This document shows positions 8,372 to 51,213 of a stretch of 64,000 nucleotides of DNA, piece by piece. Below the pieces are notes generated by a model, which saw only the letters and a program-made list of their open reading frames with translations, was not told where the DNA came from and ran no database searches. Within the stretch, counting starts at the first letter, position 1. Each line of letters starts with the position of its first letter. The position numbers were made by a program, and so were the translations under genes. Origin of the DNA: Eubacteriales bacterium (GTDB lineage Bacteria > Bacillota > Clostridia > Oscillospirales > CAG-272); contig JAZODF010000039.1 in assembly GCA_045596865.1 (NCBI GenBank), positions 2,245-66,244 of the forward strand. Direction: 5' to 3'.

Positions 8372-9442
8372 TTATTCGGGCAGGCGCTCGACCGTCAGCT
8401 CAAAGGTCTTGAAGTTGAGAATTACGTCGTAGGTGCCGACCTCGCGCAGGTAGTAAGTACTGCCCGAGACGTCAAGATTCTCGTCCTCTGTGGCGACAAA
8501 GACGATCTCGTCGTAGCTCTCGGTGTAGAAGGTCGGGATTCGGGTGTCCTTCTCGTCCGCGCTCATACGGTAGCGGATGACGTGCGGCGCCGCCTCGTCA
8601 TACGGGGTCAGGGTGATGAAGTCACCGTCCTCGTATATCTGGCAGGTGTACCGGATGGCGTCGGGTGAAACCGGCTCAATGCGCAGGGTGTAAGTCACCG
8701 AGTTCATATAGACGTTGTACCTGCCGCCGTAGTTGACCGACACGTTGGATTTGCTGAAATTACCGAAGAGGTCGGTTTTATCGTCGGCCGCGGCGAAGTG
8801 ATAAATGCTGACGTGGGTGCGATCGTGGAAGAACAGGTACTCGCCCGCGGGGATCTCGACGTCCGTGAGGCAATACTCGTCGGGGTTATCGGGATTCTTC
8901 GCCATCGGGTGATACTCGGATTTCATCCACATCTCACAGCTCGGCATGGTGTAGTAGCGAGGGGTGTCTATCTCGCGCTTGTAGACGAGGTCAAAGGTGT
9001 GCGCGTTCACGTCGAATTTGATGGTGTAGACGCCGCTTTTCACAATATTTATCTGGATATCGTAGCCGCTCTCCTTCTCCTCGGAGGCGTATTCGGTGTC
9101 GGTCGGGTCGCCGAGAGTGGCGTACAGGTCGCGCATATCCCCCGAAACGGCGTAGAAATAGTCACCCTCGTACAGGTAGATCTCGTCGTAGACGCGGTTG
9201 TCGCCCTCGAGCGAGAAGATCTTGTAGTTCATAAAGTAACCGTGGACGCTCATGGACAAAATGAGCTTATCCGAGGTGTAATACTCGGTATCGGGCGCGG
9301 GAGTGAAGTGGTCGACGGTCACGTCCTCGGGCAAAACCACGGTGATGTCGGAGTTGTAATCCCTATCGCCGCCCGCGAAATCACAGCCGACGAGCAGACA
9401 TATAAGCATAAGTGCGGCAAAAATCAGAGCAAGTCGTTTCAT
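8372..9442 (-). CDS. Hypothetical lipoprotein
   Basis: Start set to MKRLALIFAALMLICLLVGC (lipobox), preceded by GGAGG. About 356 aa and Tyr/Asp-rich. Confidence 0.6.
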   Translation of the reverse strand: MKRLALIFAALMLICLLVGCDFAGGDRDYNSDITVVLPEDVTVDHFTPAPDTEYYTSDKLILSMSVHGYFMNYKIFSLEGDNRVYDEIYLYEGDYFYAVSGDMRDLYATLGDPTDTEYASEEKESGYDIQINIVKSGVYTIKFDVNAHTFDLVYKREIDTPRYYTMPSCEMWMKSEYHPMAKNPDNPDEYCLTDVEIPAGEYLFFHDRTHVSIYHFAAADDKTDLFGNFSKSNVSVNYGGRYNVYMNSVTYTLRIEPVSPDAIRYTCQIYEDGDFITLTPYDEAAPHVIRYRMSADEKDTRIPTFYTESYDEIVFVATEDENLDVSGSTYYLREVGTYDVILNFKTFELTVERLPE

Positions 9443-9604
9443 AACGCAACCTCCATTGATTGTTTTCAACCCTATTTTAGCACAACGAACGCCGCCCGTC
9501 AAGCAGATAATTGACGTTTGTTAAAGATTTGGGGGGCGATTCGCGGCAAAAAGTGGCGCGGGCAGGGCACGGCAAAAAGCGGGGTCAAGCGAGGCGAGCA
9601 CAGC

Positions 9605-9689
9605 GGCAAAGCCTCGCCCATCGGGAGAGTGTGTCAGAGAGTTGCCATGCAACTCGACGGAGAGGGCAAAGCCTCGCCCATCGGGAGAG
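9605..9689 (+). repeat. Two direct copies of a 25-nt motif, period 60
   Basis: GGCAAAGCCTCGCCCATCGGGAGAG at 9605-9629 and 9665-9689. Confidence 0.8.
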
Positions 9690-9744
9690 GTGGCGGCGGC
9701 GACGGGGGTCAAACGGGGCGAACGCGAGGCGGGAAATTTCGGGA

Positions 9745-9774
9745 TTGACAAGCATACCCGCGCGGGGGTATAAT
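9745..9774 (+). promoter_or_regulatory. Sigma-A type promoter
   Basis: TTGACA-N18-TATAAT, 30 nt upstream of the nucleoside hydrolase start. Confidence 0.5.
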
Positions 9775-9803
9775 AGAGGCAGAAAAGAAAGCGAGGACAG
9801 GCT

Positions 9804-10700
9804 ATGACAGATATCACGAAACGGCTCGAATGCCCGAATTACACCCCCGATGCGGTTATCGACACCGACGCGTACAACGAGGTGGACGATCAGTTTGCCA
9901 TAGCCTATCTGCTCCGCTCGCAGGAGCGGGTGAAGACGGTTGCGATATACGCCGCGCCCTTCTCCTTCCCTCACATCAGCCCCGCCGAGGGCATGGAGGC
10001 GAGCTACCGCGAGATACTGACCCTCTTATCGCTGGTGGGCGAGGAGCGACCCGTGTACCGCGGATCGACCAAATACCTCGATAACGAGGCGACCCCCGTC
10101 GAGTCGGAGGCGGCACGCGACCTCGCGGCGCGGGCAATGAATTACACGCCCGACCGACCCCTGTACGTCATTGCAATCGGCGCGATCACCAACGTGGCGA
10201 GCGCGCTTCTCATAAACCCCGAGATACGCGAGCGAATCGTGGTAATCTGGCTCGGCGGTCACGCGCGGCACATGGATATCACCGACGAGTACAATATGCG
10301 CCAGGACGTCGCCGCGGCGCGCGTCGTGATGAGCTCGGGCGTCCCCTTCGTCCAGCTGCCCTGCGCGGGCGTCGTCAGCTCCTTTACCATTTCGGGTGAC
10401 GAGCTTCGCACGCGCCTTATCGGTCGCGGACCGCTTGCCGACCACCTTGCCGGCTACGTTCTCGAGGTAATGGCGCACCACGGGGATGCGGATTGGACGC
10501 GCGTGCTCTGGGACGTGACGGCGGTGGCGTGGCTAATCGACCGCGAGGGGCGGTTTATGCTCTCCCGTATTGAGAGCACCGTATTGCCCGATTACACCTG
10601 TCACTACGAAAAACGCGACACGGGTGCCCCCATGCGCTACGTTTTCCACATTTTTCGCGACGCGCTGATGCGCGACCTTATCGAAAAGATCACCGATTAA
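9804..10700 (+). CDS. Nucleoside hydrolase (IU-NH family)
   Basis: 298 aa. N-terminal aspartate cluster DTDAYNEVDDQFAIAYLL, which is the DxDxxxDD fingerprint. Confidence 0.85.
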   Translation: MTDITKRLECPNYTPDAVIDTDAYNEVDDQFAIAYLLRSQERVKTVAIYAAPFSFPHISPAEGMEASYREILTLLSLVGEERPVYRGSTKYLDNEATPVESEAARDLAARAMNYTPDRPLYVIAIGAITNVASALLINPEIRERIVVIWLGGHARHMDITDEYNMRQDVAAARVVMSSGVPFVQLPCAGVVSSFTISGDELRTRLIGRGPLADHLAGYVLEVMAHHGDADWTRVLWDVTAVAWLIDREGRFMLSRIESTVLPDYTCHYEKRDTGAPMRYVFHIFRDALMRDLIEKITD

Positions 10701-43589: not shown

Positions 43590-43655
43590 TGTTATATAAT
43601 ATTTCATATATTTTCCTGCACGTGTTATATAATATTTCATATATTTTCCTACACG
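43590..43655 (+). repeat. Two tandem copies of an AT-rich 33-bp unit
   Basis: TGTTATATAATATTTCATATATTTTCCT(G/A)CACG at 43590-43622 and 43623-43655. Confidence 0.85.
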
Positions 43656-43766: not shown

Positions 43767-43795
43767 TTGATTTGTTCATATCTATATGGTAAAAT
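43767..43795 (+). promoter_or_regulatory. RHS-cassette promoter
   Basis: TTGATT-N17-(TGG)TAAAAT, with AAAGGAGAA RBS and ATG 39 nt downstream of the -10. Paralogous to 12009-12037. Confidence 0.6.
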
Positions 43796-43833
43796 ATAGG
43801 TGGAATCAATAAAAACAAAAAAGGAGAAACGAA

Positions 43834-46800
43834 ATGGCTTATGTGAAAAATTTCAATCCAGGACAGATTTTGCTTGACCTTCCGAGTGCTAACCACATTT
43901 ATGAGCTGCCACTATTGTCGTTTGGCGACGTTAACGGAAGCGTTGGAATTTCGGTTATTTATAACCGCCAGTTTGCCGCTATGGGCGATCAGCGCTTCGG
44001 TTTTTACATGGGCTACAAGCTGAATTTGCAGAAAAAGATTCTGTTTAGCGACAATAGCTCGGGTAATTACATCGACGCCAACGGAAAAACGATTCCCTTT
44101 TGGAGAACAGAAGGAGTTTATCTTTTTGAGGACGAGGGCACTCGCGTAATGGTTCCTATCGGAACATCATACAAGGTATTCTACCCGGATAATAGCTATG
44201 AAATATTCGATCAATCCGGAAGAATCACGCTAATGTACGATAAATACGGGCATATTTTGGCAAGCTTAACGTACGGTAGCAACGGACTTTTAACATCCAT
44301 AACCATTAAGAACAAGCACGTTGTTTCCGTATCGAACAATGCTGCCAATATGATTTCCTCGATCTCACACAATGGCTTATCTATTGGATTTGTTCACCCT
44401 GCCGGTCCGCTTAACGTTTCGCATTATTCGGGGGTATCGTACTCGATCGTGCCCACAAGCGGATATGGCTTGACCGCCACCGCCACGGGGACAGAAAACT
44501 CGGTATCCGTTTCGCATTCGGTTCGCTTGACGCTCTCGGGAACGAATGTACGCTCGTCATACTTGATCAATAACAACGAGATCGATTATCAAATCTATTC
44601 CTTCCCCGATGAGGTTAATTGTCAGACACTGTATAACCAAGTTGAAATAACGGACAAAAACGGCGTAAAAACGAGAACGCAGTATCAAGGAAAGCACCCA
44701 ACCTATTCGTACGAGGTGACCGGTAATGATGACGTAGCCTTCGTGGATAACAAATACGGCGGTGCGGTAACTTTACATAGGCAATATTTAACGACCGAGG
44801 ACGGAAAGCCTAAAGGAATACAGCGGCTCAAAGATGGAGCCGCGATGTTGATTGCTGGTTCCAAAGAGTGGTTTTACGATATAACCGAGTATTCCTCGGT
44901 TATGGCAAACGGCTACTTCGTTTTGTCGGGATGGATCAATGCTCAAACCGAGTGTGACGATCCGGAAAACGTAGTTATGCAGCTCGACACAAGCACGGGT
45001 CCGACTTATTTTAGCATCGACGCCACCCCCTGCAACACTTGGAGATATTTCGCTCATACCTTCAAGACAAGCACCGCATTTGTTCGGATTCGCATTGACT
45101 CTAACAAAGCAGATTTAAGAGATTTAAGAATCACGTTCCAAGAAACCGGCAAGATCAATAACGGTGATTCATCCCATCTCACGCTCACGTCAGACGTGTT
45201 GTATTGCCGCAGAGCGAACACCGCCTCGTATGATAAAGTCCCCTTGTCTGAAGCAACCTTCAGTCACGGAGCGTTTAGTGTTCCGAACGAGTATGAACCA
45301 AACGCGAAGGTATATTACAACGACATCCTGAGATATAAGAAAAACCAAGCGGCGGGTGTTAATACAAATCATTTTTATTACAACAACGGTGAGTGTGTTT
45401 ACATATTGTCCTCTGCTTCGGATTCCTACATCACGGTTGAATACAACGGTGTTTCCTATAATCTGCACGATGCGTTTCTTGGGAATGAGGTATTCCGTCA
45501 CGGACACGGAAACGTCATCACTCAGATCAACAACACGACCGTGGCGATCGGGTCGCAAACCCAACGCCGTTTGGTAATACAAACCAAGAAAGCTACCGGC
45601 GAGCTGATTTCTTCACAGACGCTGGATAACAAACTCGACGTCATATCCGTAACAAATGAAGGGGTCACAACGACCTACGAAAGAACGAACGGCCTTATTA
45701 CGTCCGAGAGTGTTTCGGATTCGAGCGGACAGATTTTGTTCACTCGCACTATGTCATACGGTACGGATTCGGGCGGTAACGACGTCGTGACGTTGGTGGA
45801 CGAGTTTGGAAAAAGCACAGTCATTACGCTAGATTCAAACCACGGTGTCGAGCTATCTCTTACCGCCCCGGATAATAGTATAACCTCGAACGAATACGAC
45901 AGCGATTACTGCGCGCTGACCAAGCGCACGTTCTCCGGCTCCGCGCCTCGCTCCAATCAGCTTGCTTATTTTGCAGGCAATCTTCAAGGTGTTAATACGG
46001 GCTCTTTAGGCTACGAGTTCGAATACACCGACGGAAAGTTATCTAAGGTCGAAAAATCCGACGCCCCCGTAGAACAGCACGTAAATACCGATACCTCTAC
46101 GACAAGTCACTACCCATCGTCGCAGTCACCGCTTTATTCGGAGATAACAAACTTTGATAAATACGGCAGACCCATTTTGATAGAAAACCAAGCCGCATTT
46201 ACCTACAGCGTATTTCCCAACTATAACAGTTCCGGCGAAATGACGTCCAACATAAACAACGCAAGCTCCGTTCCGGCAACCGTTATCGACCATGTCGCGA
46301 ATGAAACGACGAGGTATTCGTATAACACCTCGGGCAAGGTGATTTCCGCGCTCGTAGCAGCCACGGATGATTATTCGGACAAAAAACGGGTCAGCGGCTG
46401 CGTCTACGATGCTATCGGACGCCTTTCCATGCAAAATTTCGCGTATGGCACAGGCACGAACGATATGGTTTTCGAGCAAATCGGATATAGAAAGGCGGAA
46501 ACAGACCCGACGGCAAACAACGTCATTCAATCTTATTCATATTATCACATTGAACACTCATCCGGTATTCCCGTCGCAAGCTCGCAAAATACGTTCGATT
46601 CCTTCAACCGTATTTCGGAAAGGTCAATCAGCTTGGGTAATGCCGTCTTTACAAAGCAGTTCAACTATAACAAAACTTGGTTGAGCAGCGAGTACCTTTG
46701 CCTAAATGATTCGTTATCCGAAACAATCTATTACAGTCGTGACGATATGGGCAGGCTCGCCTCCACATTGATAAGCAATCCTAATTCAGCGTATCACACC

Positions 46801-48324
46801 TCATACGCCTACGATTCGTTCGGTCAGCTCGTCCGCGAGAATAATCAACGGCTTGGTAAAACCTTTACGTACTCCTACGACACCCTCGGAAATATTACGA
46901 GCGTGGATGAATACGCCTACACCACGTCAAGCACGCTCGGCACGAGAACCTCGCAAAAGAGCTTCGTATATCAGGCGGATAGGTTAACAAATGCAAACGG
47001 ACAAAGCATCGGATACGACACCCTCGGGCGTCCAACCACCGTCGGTACGCTAAGTTATCAATGGTCGAGGAACAAGCTCTCGGGAGTCACCCGTGGCTCG
47101 TTGTCGCAGTACGGGGCGCTATATCATAATATCACCTTTGATTACAACGGTTTGGGTCAGCGCACGGGAAAGCATTATCAGTATGATACGACCGTTGGAA
47201 GCACTAACGATTTGTCCTATACGTACGATACCGAGTACAACTACGATGACGCGGGTAGGCTGATGCGCGAGGTTTGCACCGAGCATTATATGCACGGCGC
47301 AACGACCGTTTACGAGCTTATTTACCTCTATAACGAGTCGGGTATGATCGGCGTACGCCTGAGCGTTAACGGTGGGGCATTTACCGACTATTACTACCGC
47401 AGAAATGCTCTCGGCGACGTGATTGCTATTTATAACACAAGCTACACGCGCGTGGTTGAGTATGCCTACGACGCGTGGGGCAATTGCACGACCCTTATCG
47501 GCAGTACGACCGCAATAGGACAGATAAATCCCATCCTATACAGAGGATACTACCGCGATAGGGAAACGGGGCTATATTTCTGCAATTCGAGGTATTATGA
47601 CCCTAGCTGGCGTAGGTTTATCTCGCCCGACGATACTGCGTATCTTGATCCCGAAAACGTCAACGGTCTGAACTTGTATGCATACTGTGGTAATGATCCT
47701 GTAAATTATGTCGATCCGAGTGGTTGTAGTTCTAACTCTTTATGGAAGACTATTTTTGGGGTGGCTATTGGGGTTGGATTAGCCGCTTTGGCTATTGGTG
47801 CAACCATACTTACGGGTGGTTCCTTTGCGGCAATAGGTATTGGTTTCGTATTAGGAGCTACAGCTAGTTTTGTTGGACAGGGTGTTGGAAATGTCCTTAG
47901 TGGCGAGAACTTCTTTGATGGAATAAGCATTGGTTCCATAATTATGGGAGGATTGGCAGGAGCTGCATTCGCCACCGGTGTAGGAGGTTTATGGGGTGCA
48001 GTTGCTATCGGAGCAGCCTCTAACGCTGGAACTTCTGCTTTGGAAAATAAGAGTTGGGCAAATATTGCAGGAAGTGCGGTAGTTGGAGGAATCGCAGCAG
48101 GTATTGGATATGGAGTCGGAAAGTTTGCCTCCAACCATATTTATAAAAACACAGGGATGACATTTAATGACTTCTATAATTTGGGGATAGTTGATACGAA
48201 TCCAGTTATGGCCGCATTCTATGCCCTTGGAGCGTCTTGGTACACGTTTTTGCCAAATATTGCTACATCATCCTCGAGAGGATTAATCAAATTTCTAGGC
48301 AATAAAGGAATTGGGTGGTTTTAA
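43834..48324 (+). CDS. RHS/YD-repeat polymorphic toxin with glycine-zipper transmembrane C-terminal domain
   Basis: 1496 aa. Many YD repeats (e.g. YDKYGHILASLTYGSNG, YSYDTLGNITSV, YNYDDAGRLMRE). RHS core (YYYRRNALGDVIAIY...YAYDAWGN...YRGYYRDRETGLYFCNSRYYDPSWRRFISPD...YAYCGNDPVNYVDPSG). A 199-aa Gly/Ala-rich hydrophobic tail follows. Confidence 0.9.
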   Translation: MAYVKNFNPGQILLDLPSANHIYELPLLSFGDVNGSVGISVIYNRQFAAMGDQRFGFYMGYKLNLQKKILFSDNSSGNYIDANGKTIPFWRTEGVYLFEDEGTRVMVPIGTSYKVFYPDNSYEIFDQSGRITLMYDKYGHILASLTYGSNGLLTSITIKNKHVVSVSNNAANMISSISHNGLSIGFVHPAGPLNVSHYSGVSYSIVPTSGYGLTATATGTENSVSVSHSVRLTLSGTNVRSSYLINNNEIDYQIYSFPDEVNCQTLYNQVEITDKNGVKTRTQYQGKHPTYSYEVTGNDDVAFVDNKYGGAVTLHRQYLTTEDGKPKGIQRLKDGAAMLIAGSKEWFYDITEYSSVMANGYFVLSGWINAQTECDDPENVVMQLDTSTGPTYFSIDATPCNTWRYFAHTFKTSTAFVRIRIDSNKADLRDLRITFQETGKINNGDSSHLTLTSDVLYCRRANTASYDKVPLSEATFSHGAFSVPNEYEPNAKVYYNDILRYKKNQAAGVNTNHFYYNNGECVYILSSASDSYITVEYNGVSYNLHDAFLGNEVFRHGHGNVITQINNTTVAIGSQTQRRLVIQTKKATGELISSQTLDNKLDVISVTNEGVTTTYERTNGLITSESVSDSSGQILFTRTMSYGTDSGGNDVVTLVDEFGKSTVITLDSNHGVELSLTAPDNSITSNEYDSDYCALTKRTFSGSAPRSNQLAYFAGNLQGVNTGSLGYEFEYTDGKLSKVEKSDAPVEQHVNTDTSTTSHYPSSQSPLYSEITNFDKYGRPILIENQAAFTYSVFPNYNSSGEMTSNINNASSVPATVIDHVANETTRYSYNTSGKVISALVAATDDYSDKKRVSGCVYDAIGRLSMQNFAYGTGTNDMVFEQIGYRKAETDPTANNVIQSYSYYHIEHSSGIPVASSQNTFDSFNRISERSISLGNAVFTKQFNYNKTWLSSEYLCLNDSLSETIYYSRDDMGRLASTLISNPNSAYHTSYAYDSFGQLVRENNQRLGKTFTYSYDTLGNITSVDEYAYTTSSTLGTRTSQKSFVYQADRLTNANGQSIGYDTLGRPTTVGTLSYQWSRNKLSGVTRGSLSQYGALYHNITFDYNGLGQRTGKHYQYDTTVGSTNDLSYTYDTEYNYDDAGRLMREVCTEHYMHGATTVYELIYLYNESGMIGVRLSVNGGAFTDYYYRRNALGDVIAIYNTSYTRVVEYAYDAWGNCTTLIGSTTAIGQINPILYRGYYRDRETGLYFCNSRYYDPSWRRFISPDDTAYLDPENVNGLNLYAYCGNDPVNYVDPSGCSSNSLWKTIFGVAIGVGLAALAIGATILTGGSFAAIGIGFVLGATASFVGQGVGNVLSGENFFDGISIGSIIMGGLAGAAFATGVGGLWGAVAIGAASNAGTSALENKSWANIAGSAVVGGIAAGIGYGVGKFASNHIYKNTGMTFNDFYNLGIVDTNPVMAAFYALGASWYTFLPNIATSSSRGLIKFLGNKGIGWF

Positions 48325-48662
48325 TGAAAATGAGAGCAATAGAAATAGCAAACGGTTTTTTGTTGGTTTCATTAACAAGTGTAGATGTGATGTTAATTGT
48401 TAAATTCGGTTTAGCTAACGACGGTTGGCTTCTCATTGCACTTGCATTGATTTTCTTTATTATTTATATTGGTGGAAGACTTTCTCCTCGTTTTGCAGTG
48501 ACTTTGATACATAAACTATCAAAGAGAATGTATAGAGATTCAGACAACATTTCAGTACCGACATTGGAGGAAGCAAAGGAAACCTTTAAGAGCAGATTGC
48601 CTTATTTGTTGGTGATCGTTAATATTCTTATGCTGTTATTGATACTCACATTTTTGTTATAA
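48324..48662 (+). CDS. Putative cognate immunity protein (3-TM membrane protein)
   Basis: ATG overlaps the RHS TAA (TAATG). About 112 aa, AT-rich, two N-terminal TMs plus one C-terminal TM. An alternative GTG start is at 48315. Confidence 0.6.
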   Translation: MKMRAIEIANGFLLVSLTSVDVMLIVKFGLANDGWLLIALALIFFIIYIGGRLSPRFAVTLIHKLSKRMYRDSDNISVPTLEEAKETFKSRLPYLLVIVNILMLLLILTFLL

Positions 48663-48727
48663 CGTTCGCGTCATATAAGAAGTTTGGATTTACGGATCAA
48701 GAATAACTACATCAATTTATACCCATC

Positions 48728-48759
48728 GCGAGCTCTCCTTCGGGAGGGCTCGCTTTTTG
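48728..48759 (+). terminator. RHS-locus terminator
   Basis: GCGAGCTCTCC-TTCG-GGAGGGCTCGC then TTTTTG. Identical to 13890-13921. Confidence 0.8.
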
Positions 48760-48864
48760 TTTTTTCGAAAACGATGTAATTTTTCCCAAAAATATGGACA
48801 AACGGCGCGGGATGTGGTATAGTTAGGCTATACCAAAGGTATAGACACCGAAAGGAGAAACACT

Positions 48865-51213
48865 ATGATTACCGATATTCGTCCCGCCGTGGCGCTTCGC
48901 CTCGGCTCGCAAAAGGCACTGATAAACGGGGTGCGCACCATGCTGGACGCCGCGCCCTTCCTTCGTGACGGGGTGGTTTACCTCCCCACCGACGCGCTTG
49001 CCGACGTTCAACCGAGCGGCGAGATCATCACCGAGGGCGGTGCGAAATTTGCCACCGCGGTGAAGGACGCGTATATAAATATTGATTCGATGGGTCTTAT
49101 AATGATAGACCGCGACCCCGAGATAACCACCCTCAACCACAACGAGCACCGCGACTACATGATGAACCTGATGGCAGAGATGCTGTTCGACATTGAGCGC
49201 GTGCCGATGACGGCGGGACAATACGCACCCGCGACCGAGGAGCAAAGAGCGGCATACAAGCGGATCGGTGCGGATATTATCGCGCGCCTTGGCGCGCGGG
49301 TCGCGGTGCACCCCTGCATTTTCGGTAGCGCCGAGATCTTTGCAAGGCTCCGCGAGCTTTACGAGCGGGGCGAGGAGAGCACGCGGGGAATATTTGCCGC
49401 TGTGCTTGCCGAGTGTGAGCGGCTTTCCGCAAGGGAGGAGTTCGCCCTCAACCCCGAGGAAAACGGCCTTCTGACACCCATCACTATGCCCGCGGATTTC
49501 GTCGGCGGATATGACGTTGGCGGGCGACACTCCTTCTCCGAGGGGAAGGCCGACGTCGCAGTTTGCCTCGCCTTCGGTTACCTGATAACGGGCAAGGCGC
49601 TCTACGCGAAGCAGGCATACTACATCATTCGCGGCATCTGCGATTTCGAGCACTGGGGTCCCGGGCATTTCCTCAACTGCGCGGGTGCGGCGGCGCTCTC
49701 GGCGACGGTCTACGACTGGCTCTACCACGCGTGGGGAGAGATGGGCCTCGACCGCGGTATCATCAAGCGCGAGGTTTACTCACACGGAATATATCAGGGC
49801 TATCTGTCGGCTATTCACGACCGCTCCGACTACCCGTCGGCGAAGCAGGGCACGGGCTGGCGCTTCAAGGCGAAGCCCGACAACTGGAACGCGGTGTGCA
49901 ACGGCAGCCTTATCGTGGCGGCGTTGTCCTTCCTCACCGACGGGGTTGACGACGTCCTCGGACAGGAACAGATTGACATAACCGCCGAGCTCATCGGCTG
50001 CTCGCTCGCTACGATTTCACACGGGTCGCTGGTTTTGAAGCAATACGCGCCCGACGGCTCCTACGTCGAGTCGAACTCCTACTGGTCCTACGGCACCTCG
50101 GCGCTCTTCCGCGCTATCGGTGCGCTCTACGATGCGCTCGGCACCGACCTTGGTCTGTCGCTCTCGGGCGGACTTGACAAGACCTGCTACTACGCCCTCT
50201 CGGCAGAGTCGGCGGACTTCGTCGGATGGAATTACCACGACGGCTCGCTCGGGTCGCAGAACTCGAGCATATTCAACCTGTTTGCGACCGTGTCGGGCGA
50301 TCACGCGCTCTACGCATTCCGCGACCTGCACGTCCGCCGCGGCAAGTCGCCGAACTACCTTGACCTGCTCTACCACCCGCTCGCACGCGGGTACGAGATG
50401 CCCAAGCTGACCGCGCCCGCCCTCGACTGCTATATGGAGGGTATCGACGCGCTCGTAGTGCGTGACGGATGGGAGTCGGGCTCGCTTTACGCGGGAATCA
50501 TGGGCGGCTACAATCCTAATGGGGGTAGCCACAATCAGCTCGACTCGGGCTCCTTCGTCTATCACAATCACGGTGTGCTCTGGCTCACGGATATGGGCCC
50601 CGATTACTACAATATCACGGGCGGTTATTTCGGCAACTACAAGCTCTATCGCAGGTGTGCCGAGGGTAACAACGTCCTCTCGCTCCCCTCAATCGACTAC
50701 GGTCAGCTCGGCGACGCGACGGGCTACCTTTACGAGTACCGCACGGACACTACCCCCTACGCCATTATCGACAACCACGAGGTCTACGGTGACAAGGTCA
50801 CGGTGGCAAAGCGCGGTATGCTCCTGACAAACGACAGAAGGACGACCGTCATTCAGGACGAGGTCGAATTCGTCGCACCCACCGACGCGTATTGGGTCGC
50901 GCATTTCAATTCGAGCGAGATCACCGCGGCGGTCAGCAAGGATGGCGCGAGCGTCCTTCTCACCCACAAGGACGGCAAGTCCATCGCCATCCGCGCGATT
51001 GGCGACGCGGTGAGATTCATCGTACGCGACTGCTACGATTTCCTCCTGCCGACGACCGACAACTTCGAGGGTGAGTACGACCGCAGCTCCTACTCGCGCC
51101 TTGTTATCGAGTACAAGGGCACGGAGAAAATCAACCTCGCCGTCGTTATCGAGGACGAGTGCGAGCACGGCTACGACAAAGTCATCCCGATGGACGAGTG
51201 GGTAAATATTTAA
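48865..51213 (+). CDS. Heparinase II/III-like family protein with N-terminal stalk-like domain
   Basis: 782 aa. NWNAVCNGSL (toroid region) and GGSHNQLDSGSFVYHNHGVLWLTDMGPDYY (Hepar_II_III-like). No signal peptide. Confidence 0.6.
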   Translation: MITDIRPAVALRLGSQKALINGVRTMLDAAPFLRDGVVYLPTDALADVQPSGEIITEGGAKFATAVKDAYINIDSMGLIMIDRDPEITTLNHNEHRDYMMNLMAEMLFDIERVPMTAGQYAPATEEQRAAYKRIGADIIARLGARVAVHPCIFGSAEIFARLRELYERGEESTRGIFAAVLAECERLSAREEFALNPEENGLLTPITMPADFVGGYDVGGRHSFSEGKADVAVCLAFGYLITGKALYAKQAYYIIRGICDFEHWGPGHFLNCAGAAALSATVYDWLYHAWGEMGLDRGIIKREVYSHGIYQGYLSAIHDRSDYPSAKQGTGWRFKAKPDNWNAVCNGSLIVAALSFLTDGVDDVLGQEQIDITAELIGCSLATISHGSLVLKQYAPDGSYVESNSYWSYGTSALFRAIGALYDALGTDLGLSLSGGLDKTCYYALSAESADFVGWNYHDGSLGSQNSSIFNLFATVSGDHALYAFRDLHVRRGKSPNYLDLLYHPLARGYEMPKLTAPALDCYMEGIDALVVRDGWESGSLYAGIMGGYNPNGGSHNQLDSGSFVYHNHGVLWLTDMGPDYYNITGGYFGNYKLYRRCAEGNNVLSLPSIDYGQLGDATGYLYEYRTDTTPYAIIDNHEVYGDKVTVAKRGMLLTNDRRTTVIQDEVEFVAPTDAYWVAHFNSSEITAAVSKDGASVLLTHKDGKSIAIRAIGDAVRFIVRDCYDFLLPTTDNFEGEYDRSSYSRLVIEYKGTEKINLAVVIEDECEHGYDKVIPMDEWVNI

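Follow-up and report, generated by a model that had tools for sequence, protein, structure and literature searches.

We analyze here a 64,000-nucleotide (nt) stretch of DNA from a Eubacteriales bacterium (contig JAZODF010000039.1), which we call the window, and within it a pair of overlapping genes: an RHS/YD-repeat polymorphic toxin gene of 1496 amino acids (aa) at 43834-48324, and a gene for a small integral membrane protein at 48324-48662. Both are on the forward strand, as are the other features given below unless noted. We think it likely that the two form a polymorphic-toxin module, in which the RHS protein encapsulates a membrane-depolarising C-terminal tip and the small protein provides immunity to it at the membrane. 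An earlier note on this DNA had proposed such a toxin/membrane-immunity pair, and comparative genomics supports it: the tip is linked to RHS proteins, the partner gene is found in 15 of 16 loci, the two move together as a cassette, and both are under purifying selection. Toxicity of the tip and protection by the partner are predictions of this reading.

The RHS gene is identified by its open reading frame (ORF), by repeat-family matches in the 1496-aa protein (PF05593, E = 8e-8, and TIGR01643, E = 2e-8; RHS_repeat and YD_repeat_2x), and by a PDB sequence search in which the Rhs cocoons 7q97, 8h8a/b and 8qja and the Tse5 structure 8cp6 match aa 914-1303. A well-matching ribosome-binding site (aaggaga) lies 7 nt 5′ of its ATG, and the ORF cannot start further upstream. 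An RHS-associated core domain occupies aa 1212-1297 (47467-47724; TIGR03696, E = 2.1e-21) and ends in ...RRFISPDDTAYLDPENVNGLNLYAYCGNDPVNYVDPSG|C, where DPVNYVDPSG closes the core at aa 1297 and the cargo begins with C1298. This cargo, which we refer to as the tip, comprises aa 1298-1496 (199 aa, nt 47725-48321, with codon 1298 starting at 47725). The earlier note had drawn the same boundaries, and the peptide it quoted is the translation of 47725-48321.

RHS polymorphic toxins have a core that ends in PxxxxDPxG, and an N-terminal trafficking domain or signal (Sec, PAAR, LXG and others). In the window protein, both Asp of the self-cleaving aspartyl protease motif are intact (RRFISPD1266 and VD1294PSG), as assigned by alignment and by the published D1141 of Tse5. 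The profile of the tip family aligns with the core ends of TccC3, YenC2, and Tse5. Tse5 cleaves itself at L1168|I1169, with D1141 as the catalytic Asp (PMC10684867). Given that cleavage site, and given that position 1120 of the 1121 in the Tse5 shell chain (8cp6_B) aligns to window aa 1297, we predict that the window protein probably cleaves itself at C1298|S1299, so that the released peptide would start at S1299.

The tip had been described as a multi-helix hydrophobic cargo rich in glycine zippers, and this description holds. The tip is 19.1% Gly and 15.1% Ala, with 12 charged residues of 199, versus 7.9% Gly and 5.4% Ala in the RHS body. We counted strict glycine-zipper motifs, (G/A/S)xxxGxxxG or GxxxGxxx(G/S/T), following the definition of Kim et al. 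2005 as quoted in PMC12744356, and used 5000 composition-preserving shuffles as the control. We observe 10 strict motifs in the tip versus 3.85 in the shuffles (the fraction of shuffles reaching 10 is 0.006), clustered at tip positions 36-59, 71-91, and 118-136, and no more than 2 in RHS-body windows of the same 199-aa length. The looser small-xxx-small (19) and plain GxxxG (9) counts are not above the composition expectation given by the shuffles. Therefore, the signal in the tip is its unusual composition together with the strict zipper register and the conservation of the glycines.

Hydropathy places the hydrophobic segments of the tip at about 10-55, 66-100, and 113-132. The AlphaFold2 model, built on a 35-sequence alignment, is all-helical with a pLDDT of 69, and shows a hairpin (helices 3-30 and 34-58), a shorter hairpin (69-83 and 88-106), and helices 111-138, 147-157, 160-172, and 176-195; that is, the AlphaFold check proposed in the earlier note returns five long hydrophobic helices and three short ones. 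By hydropathy, alignment, and model, the first 138 aa of the tip (47725-48138) make up a glycine-zipper core of five predicted hydrophobic helices, two hairpins and a long helix. The remaining aa 139-199 (48139-48321) are a less conserved tail with three shorter, partly amphipathic helices, as judged from the alignment and a low-confidence part of the model.

The absence of an enzyme-like motif, also claimed previously, is what we observe in family searches: the window tip has no Pfam or NCBIfam match, the 35 aligned members have no Pfam match, and there is no PDB sequence match beyond the RHS core, by single sequence or by profile. A Foldseek search of the tip model against the PDB gives nothing significant. 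Its top rows, V/F-ATPase c-subunits (E > 0.5, TM-score about 0.2), were rejected as chance similarity between Gly-rich helical hairpins, and the matches of the tip to SurE and to a Na+/H+ antiporter (E 0.04-1) were rejected as composition-driven. The tip had also been likened to class II bacteriocins. These are ribosomal peptides of less than 10 kDa, with a double-glycine or Sec leader and a dedicated ATP-binding cassette (ABC) transporter. The likeness stands for composition and fails for homology, leader peptide, and size: the window tip, unlike a class II bacteriocin, has 199 aa, is fused to an RHS core, and has no leader; no Pfam bacteriocin family appears at E <= 1 for it or for the 35 members, and there is no adjacent transporter gene.

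The tip does have relatives. A search of 5.8 billion clustered proteins finds 45 tip clusters with 43-93% identity, and an exhaustive phmmer scan of 1.84 billion proteins finds 42 representatives. Judging from these homologues, the tip is a real, selected, and rare domain family. Across the 35-sequence alignment and the further matches inspected, the RHS core motif ...NNPVxxxDPxG precedes the tip in every N-terminally extended sequence except for the partial match P0076, and carriers known at full length are RHS proteins that measure 1496-2038 aa. The earlier note would have been refuted if homology searches had shown the tip to be a conserved anchor of non-toxin proteins; they do not, as the tip-family homologues sit behind RHS cores, P0076 excepted. 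P0076 is a 199-aa metagenome protein in which the last 46 residues are 63% identical to the tip C-terminus and are fused to an unrelated N-terminal 150 aa; it may be the leftover 3′ end after a cassette replacement, or a chimera.

The genome sources of the tip are gut Eubacteriales/Clostridiales metagenome-assembled genomes (MAGs), a Christensenella MAG, and Acholeplasma granularum ATCC 19168; metagenomes supply 12 more tip loci, two with a human gut label. Every named host is monoderm or wall-less. The Acholeplasma locus (L005, NZ_JAFR01000011.1 40809-61375) has an RHS gene with the tip, at 46% identity, and a partner with three transmembrane (TM) helices. As a cultivable wall-less mollicute, A. 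granularum is an unusual host for an RHS toxin, and possibly an experimental system.

Which part of the tip would be the toxic one? The zipper core (profile positions 4-137) recurs with other, unrelated tails, in L018 (1188-1865), in L012 (2482-3210), and in the proteins P0080, P0045, and P0087. The zipper helices could then be a membrane-insertion or translocation module that serves a small C-terminal effector (tip aa 139-199), and not the toxin itself. Other RHS tips in such loci are built in this way: L001 11246-12586 has a Gly-rich hydrophobic leader and a soluble GIY-YIG-like tail (a sub-threshold match, E = 0.017). In P0076 the final 46 aa of the tail stand apart from the zipper core, and there is the precedent of Tde1, for whose translocation a glycine zipper is needed (PMC10240207). 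The entry domains of CdiA-CTs would be another module of this kind. We nevertheless find it unlikely that the effector is the tail. Thirteen residues are invariant in the 35 homologues (G44, Q52, N56, G60, G79, T84, G85, G91, I95, G96, S110, I114, and G132), and every one of them falls within helices 1 to 5, that is, in the zipper core, so that the tail has none. The 61-aa tail has no catalytic signature, and its model has a pLDDT of 41-59. Moreover, the partner of the window tip is an integral membrane protein, whereas the soluble-tail tip of L001 is followed by a soluble 273-aa partner.

We now consider the partner as the candidate immunity protein of a membrane-acting tip. Its gene (48324-48662) encodes 112 aa with three membrane helices, as indicated by the ORF, hydropathy, AlphaFold, and homologues. 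The junction between the two genes reads TAATG, with the RHS stop TAA (48322-48324) overlapping the partner ATG (48324-48326), so the overlapping three-TM ORF described before is indeed there. Its hydrophobic segments lie at about 10-27, 33-54, and 93-112, and an AlphaFold model based on an alignment of 6 sequences has helices 2-28, 33-53, 55-69, and 81-111, with a pLDDT of 68. The loop of about 40 aa between membrane helices 2 and 3 has nine basic and five acidic residues, and by the positive-inside rule the topology would be N-in/C-out.

The pairing of tip and partner is conserved. Five close homologues of the partner are found, and a partner-type ORF of 100-143 aa stands behind the tip in all 6 of the genome loci and in 9 of the 10 metagenome loci with enough downstream DNA. 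The layout is one of two N-terminal hydrophobic segments and a third at the very C-terminus; L023 departs from it, with one N-terminal segment detected (1+1). L023 is also the exception in its spacing: in the other 14 of the 15 loci the partner ORF overlaps or abuts the RHS stop, and in L023 it starts 49 nt downstream. With respect to the window, tip and partner identities are 93% and 72% in L001, 67% and 43% in L002, and about 40-49% and 21-29% in the rest. In these alignments, the sequence of the partner is drifting faster than that of the tip while position and topology are kept. Comparing the window with L001, the tip has a ratio of nonsynonymous to synonymous substitution rates (dN/dS) of 0.08 and the partner one of 0.34, which means purifying selection on both; therefore, both are genuine genes, with looser constraint on the partner.

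A small membrane protein encoded next to an RHS protein without a signal peptide could also be a holin-like factor for the release of that protein, as with TcdE or in type 10 secretion, and have nothing to do with immunity. There is a weak Pfam match of the partner to the phage T7 holin family PF10746 (E = 0.006-0.007, 16.4 bits), and a Phage_holin_5_2 gene lies directly upstream of the RHS gene in L011, a relative sharing the N-terminal motif of the window protein. But those 16.4 bits are below the family cutoff of 25.4, the match is seen in 2 of 11 family members, and the 11 members searched have no PHROG holin family match. Holins are characterized by a charged C-terminal tail and by linkage to an endolysin; the partner ends in a membrane helix with no charged tail, and no lysin gene is adjacent. 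The holin of L011 is unrelated to the partner, and the window has no homologue of it. Finally, the partner travels with the tip and not with the RHS body, even in orphan cassettes without a full RHS gene, and it diversifies together with the tip. A role in release in place of immunity thus looks very improbable to us.

The behavior of the pair as a cassette can be seen by nucleotide alignment with L001, a Eubacteriales MAG. Window positions 47527-48648, which cover about the last 66 core codons, the tip, and the partner gene, are 84% identical to an orphan cassette at L001 9803-10924. The rest of the window RHS gene has no counterpart in L001, and the breakpoint is inside core-coding DNA. Arrays of orphan core-tip-partner cassettes stand behind the main gene in L001-L004 and L006 (as examples, L001 11246-13454, L003 11030-12981, and L004 11053-14755). 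The window has no orphan cassette, since a terminator directly follows the pair. This cassette behavior, typical of toxin/immunity pairs, supports the proposed module.

In these arrays, a membrane protein comes next after the other all-hydrophobic tips (L003 12460-12981 and L004 11904-12359), and a soluble protein after the tip with the soluble tail in L001. That the type of the partner, membrane or soluble, tracks the type of the tip in neighboring cassettes supports a functional pairing as well. Several orphan tips of the L001, L003, and L004 arrays start with other Gly-rich hydrophobic segments. By eye, the first hairpin of the window tip resembles the third orphan tip of L004 (12661-13764), a likeness we rejected, as hmmsearch gives no match at E <= 1. 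L004 14267-14755 appears to join an RHS-core remnant directly to a three-TM protein with the layout of the partner, and would then be an immunity gene that lost its toxin.

These observations also bear on a different kind of explanation, in which the RHS protein is an uncleaved adhesin or structural protein displayed on the surface of the producer, its hydrophobic tail is a C-terminal anchor, and there is no toxin/immunity relation at all. The five hydrophobic helices and the lack of an enzyme motif would suit an anchor, and the protein has no export signal that would otherwise account for its reaching the membrane. Yet the tail follows a conserved RHS-core self-cleavage motif with both catalytic Asp intact, it moves as a cassette with its partner, exists in orphan cassettes, and varies between strains; and an anchor would need no co-diversifying partner. 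We give this explanation hardly any credence.

The strain variability can be delimited to the nucleotide. The metagenome contigs L008 and L009 have 97-98% identity to both flanks of the window pair, in the same gene order, and their alignment to the window stops at 43821 and resumes at 48729. The intervening 4907 nt of the window (43822-48728), with the RHS gene and its partner, are replaced in L008 and L009 by an unrelated 591-nt segment of 29% GC. Thus, by these alignments, the RHS and partner segment is a strain-specific replacement between a common promoter-like site and a common terminator. The GC profile agrees with the limits of the insert: 55-64% in the flanks, 41-52% in the RHS body, and about 35% in the partner gene and the spacer behind it. 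The promoter-like site (TTGATT-17-TAAAAT with TG, 43767-43795) is a candidate from a consensus scan only; it lies upstream of the RHS gene in DNA common to strains without the insert, and is kept in L008. The intrinsic terminator (48728-48763), an 11-bp GC-rich stem with a T-run, is likewise common to strains without the insert and closes the two-gene operon. The product of the 591-nt segment (L008 13346-13936, the counterpart of window 43822-48728) is a protein of 169 aa that has two membrane helices at its N-terminus, a soluble tail, and no Pfam match; its gene might be an orphan immunity gene or unrelated cargo.

Beyond the pairing of a hydrophobic tip with a membrane protein, we infer the mechanism, including cleavage, encapsulation, pore formation, the mode of immunity, and the route of export. 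The 1297-aa RHS part would fold as a closed YD-repeat cocoon, and the C-terminal aspartyl-protease motif would cut after about C1298, freeing a 198-aa tip. The cut tip would stay enclosed by the cocoon, where the hydrophobic peptide would be soluble and harmless in the producer; held there, it would require no immunity protein in the cytoplasm. Following release, and on contact with a competitor, the tip would exit the cocoon and enter the cytoplasmic membrane as helical hairpins. The glycine-zipper faces may pack the helices tightly, within and between tip copies, and drive oligomerisation, with the conserved polar residues Q52, N56, T84, and S110 possibly lining the ion path. The product would be an ion-conducting pore or an ionophore that dissipates the membrane potential. 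The partner, made by coupled translation from the overlapping start, would reside in the membrane of the producer and block insertion or oligomerisation of the incoming tip of a sister cell via helix-helix binding. A membrane partner here, versus a soluble partner for a soluble-tail tip, argues that the site of action would be the membrane itself.

Several observations weigh against this proposal. In the PDB sequence, profile, and Foldseek searches, the tip has no sequence or fold similarity to any characterised pore-former. The confidence of the AlphaFold models is moderate (pLDDT 69 for the tip and 68 for the partner). Not all five long helices of the tip need span the bilayer, since the hydrophobicity of helices 4 and 5 is weak (mean Kyte-Doolittle 0.99 and 0.68) and helices 3 and 4 extend over only 15 and 19 residues. 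The RHS protein has no signal peptide or trafficking domain, and neither the window nor the relatives examined have secretion genes next to it. Divergence of the tip correlates modestly with that of the partner (Spearman 0.49, p = 0.024, from non-independent pairs). Finally, L015 has no intact partner gene, as its partner ORF is cut after nine codons. At L015 5291-5305, the contig runs from the partner ORF into a convergent polynucleotide phosphorylase (PNPase) gene, and this break is probably a metagenome assembly join, not a natural toxin without immunity.

By our comparisons, the tip is a new sequence family in an already known system type, and its membership in the described families is not demonstrable. 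In its mode of action the proposed module would resemble Tse5 and Tsi5 and, as regards the toxic element, TelE, EsxX, TspA, and the CDI ionophores. Tse5-CT of P. aeruginosa (RhsP1, PA2684) is a 149-aa Rhs tip with no enzyme motif that inserts spontaneously into lipid layers, makes cation-preferring pores, depolarises cells, and is neutralised by the membrane protein Tsi5 (PMC9637101). Its cryo-electron microscopy structure shows the shell as a chaperone encapsulating an integral-membrane toxin (PMC10684867), and, owing to the Rhs barrel, no immunity protein against Tse5 is required in the cytoplasm (PMC12744356). The earlier note had singled out a hydrophobic cargo kept soluble by its cocoon as mechanistically interesting; the idea fits, but it is not novel, having been worked out experimentally for Tse5 (PMC9637101, PMC10684867; summarized in PMC12744356). 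Like Tse5 and Tsi5, the window pair has an RHS cocoon with the same core and self-cleavage motif, a tip (about 198 aa here versus 149 aa) that lacks an enzyme motif and whose predicted helices would span the membrane, and a small integral membrane protein immediately 3′. Unlike in Tse5, the tip shows no detectable similarity and only the RHS cores align, where 8cp6 was matched via its shell chain and the Tse5-CT sequence was not directly aligned. Tse5 is a type VI secretion system (T6SS) effector of a diderm, with a PAAR-like N-terminus and a VgrG partner, whereas the window protein comes from monoderm lineages, with no PAAR domain and no T6SS. Tsi5 has 2 predicted TM helices and the window partner has 3.

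According to a 2025 study of EsxX, polytopic membrane immunity proteins nearly always accompany channel-forming effectors (PMC12744356). The LXG toxins TelE, EsxX, and TspA, compared here by their description in that paper, resemble the window tip in their monoderm (Bacillota) hosts, in an extended glycine zipper as the toxic element, in acting on the membrane without an enzyme domain, and in membrane-protein immunity against the extracellular toxin (PMC12744356). They differ in having an N-terminal LXG domain and delivery through a secretion system of type VIIb (T7SSb), where the window protein has an RHS cocoon and no LXG match in Pfam or NCBIfam. In addition, EsxX and TelE are described as also needing soluble cytoplasmic immunity proteins (PMC12744356). 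There is no such gene at the window pair, as expected if the cocoon shields the tip.

The contact-dependent inhibition (CDI) ionophores, CdiA-CT of E. coli EC93 and of groups 1-6, are likewise predicted five-helix membrane bundles with a glycine zipper, and CdiI, like the window partner, is a small, very hydrophobic immunity protein that diversifies rapidly into cognate pairs (PMC11630599). The differences are the carrier (CdiA with two-partner secretion), the proteobacterial hosts, a CdiI that is a 2-helix hairpin of 72-100 aa, and a separate N-terminal entry domain of the CDI toxins that uses inner-membrane receptor proteins (PMC11630599). Finally, among the toxin domains that Zhang et al. 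2012 list for polymorphic toxins, RHS proteins among them, the sole pore-forming one is Tox-WTIP (PMC3482391). It is hydrophobic and non-catalytic and occurs on RHS proteins, like the window tip (PMC3482391). But it comes from proteobacteria and has two helices with RxxR and Wx[ST]IP motifs, while the window tip has a single Arg (R185), no Wx[ST]IP, and five to eight helices.

How does a cocoon of about 165 kDa without an export signal exit a monoderm cell, and how does it deliver a hydrophobic peptide to a target membrane? This is the question that the window pair touches. The first 600 aa of the RHS protein have no Pfam or NCBIfam domain, and at its N-terminus there is no signal peptide, no hydrophobic stretch, and no LXG, PAAR, or other trafficking domain in those two databases. 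A search with the N-terminal 500 aa finds 7 relatives, one of them labelled 'Clostridia bacterium'. About 45 N-terminal aa are conserved in the relative L011, and most relatives likewise have no signal peptide or known trafficking domain, and share only this conserved motif of about 45 aa. In L011, two genes (9420-9981) directly precede the RHS gene, which starts at 10001: one for a Phage_holin_5_2 protein of 90 aa, the other for a protein of 94 aa that has a single membrane helix and a coiled coil. The window has no homologue of either one. The holin neighbor in L011 is possibly a clue to a holin-dependent release of signal-less RHS proteins.

One could go further and propose that the signal-less RHS cocoons of gut Clostridia and wall-less Acholeplasma are a distinct delivery class, possibly released by holin-type lysis, at which the holin gene beside L011 hints, with tips that routinely start with a reusable glycine-zipper insertion module. 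In such a class, the zipper module would be the pore itself in the family of the window tip, and in others a vehicle by which soluble toxins cross the one membrane that a monoderm has. We regard a delivery class of this kind as rather doubtful. If true, RHS delivery in monoderms would be a direct hand-over from cocoon to membrane without an injection machine.

If the tip is confirmed to depolarise membranes, it would be a second, unrelated sequence family of Rhs-encapsulated membrane toxins and, among the published reports found, the first such toxin from monoderm gut anaerobes. The family is outside Pfam and NCBIfam, and its genes carry only the annotations 'RHS repeat protein' or 'hypothetical'. 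With just 198 aa in the tip and 112 aa in the partner, and with its invariant glycines and four polar positions that are conserved, the pair is a compact, self-contained system, convenient for questions about how glycine-zipper toxins make an ion path and how a three-helix membrane protein would block it. And its presence or absence at the strain level, in a fixed slot between promoter and terminator, would mark the RHS pair as an actively exchanged competition factor of the gut.

As for the surroundings, we scanned with Pfam 19 window ORFs flanking the pair on both sides, which are not the complete gene set. One flank has housekeeping genes (a trypsin-like peptidase, RlmL, GDPD, and a major facilitator superfamily (MFS) transporter), and the other has a 782-aa protein, DUF711, TruB, AddA, and AlaRS. 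The AddA-type helicase-nuclease, the 'Clostridia bacterium' label of the N-terminal relative, and the taxa in which the tip occurs suggest a monoderm host, probably of the class Clostridia. There is no secretion-system domain among the 19, and by Pfam the flanks of the relatives L003 and L004 have housekeeping genes only and no secretion system. A phage or prophage origin was rejected, as the tip has no relative in 2.9 million viral contigs and the flanks have no phage genes. Two further ORFs inside the tip-coding DNA, an antisense Pro/Ala-rich ORF of 142 aa (47706-48134, reverse strand) and a +1-frame Trp/Gly/Tyr-rich ORF of 41 aa (47742-47867, forward strand), were rejected as genes, since GGN/GCN-rich coding DNA gives rise to such frames; conservation at the nucleotide level accounts for the reappearance of the +1-frame ORF in relatives. 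The 782-aa protein (48865-51213), directly 3′ of the insert, gives no match in Pfam at E <= 1e-5 and is kept in the sister strains. On the other side, between the divergent MFS gene and the RHS promoter, an AT-rich unit of 33 bp, TGTTATATAATATTTCATATATTTTCCT[G/A]CACG, stands twice in tandem at positions 43590-43655, in perfect register and with copies 97% identical. L008 has a single unit, and the unit could be an operator or a promoter element.

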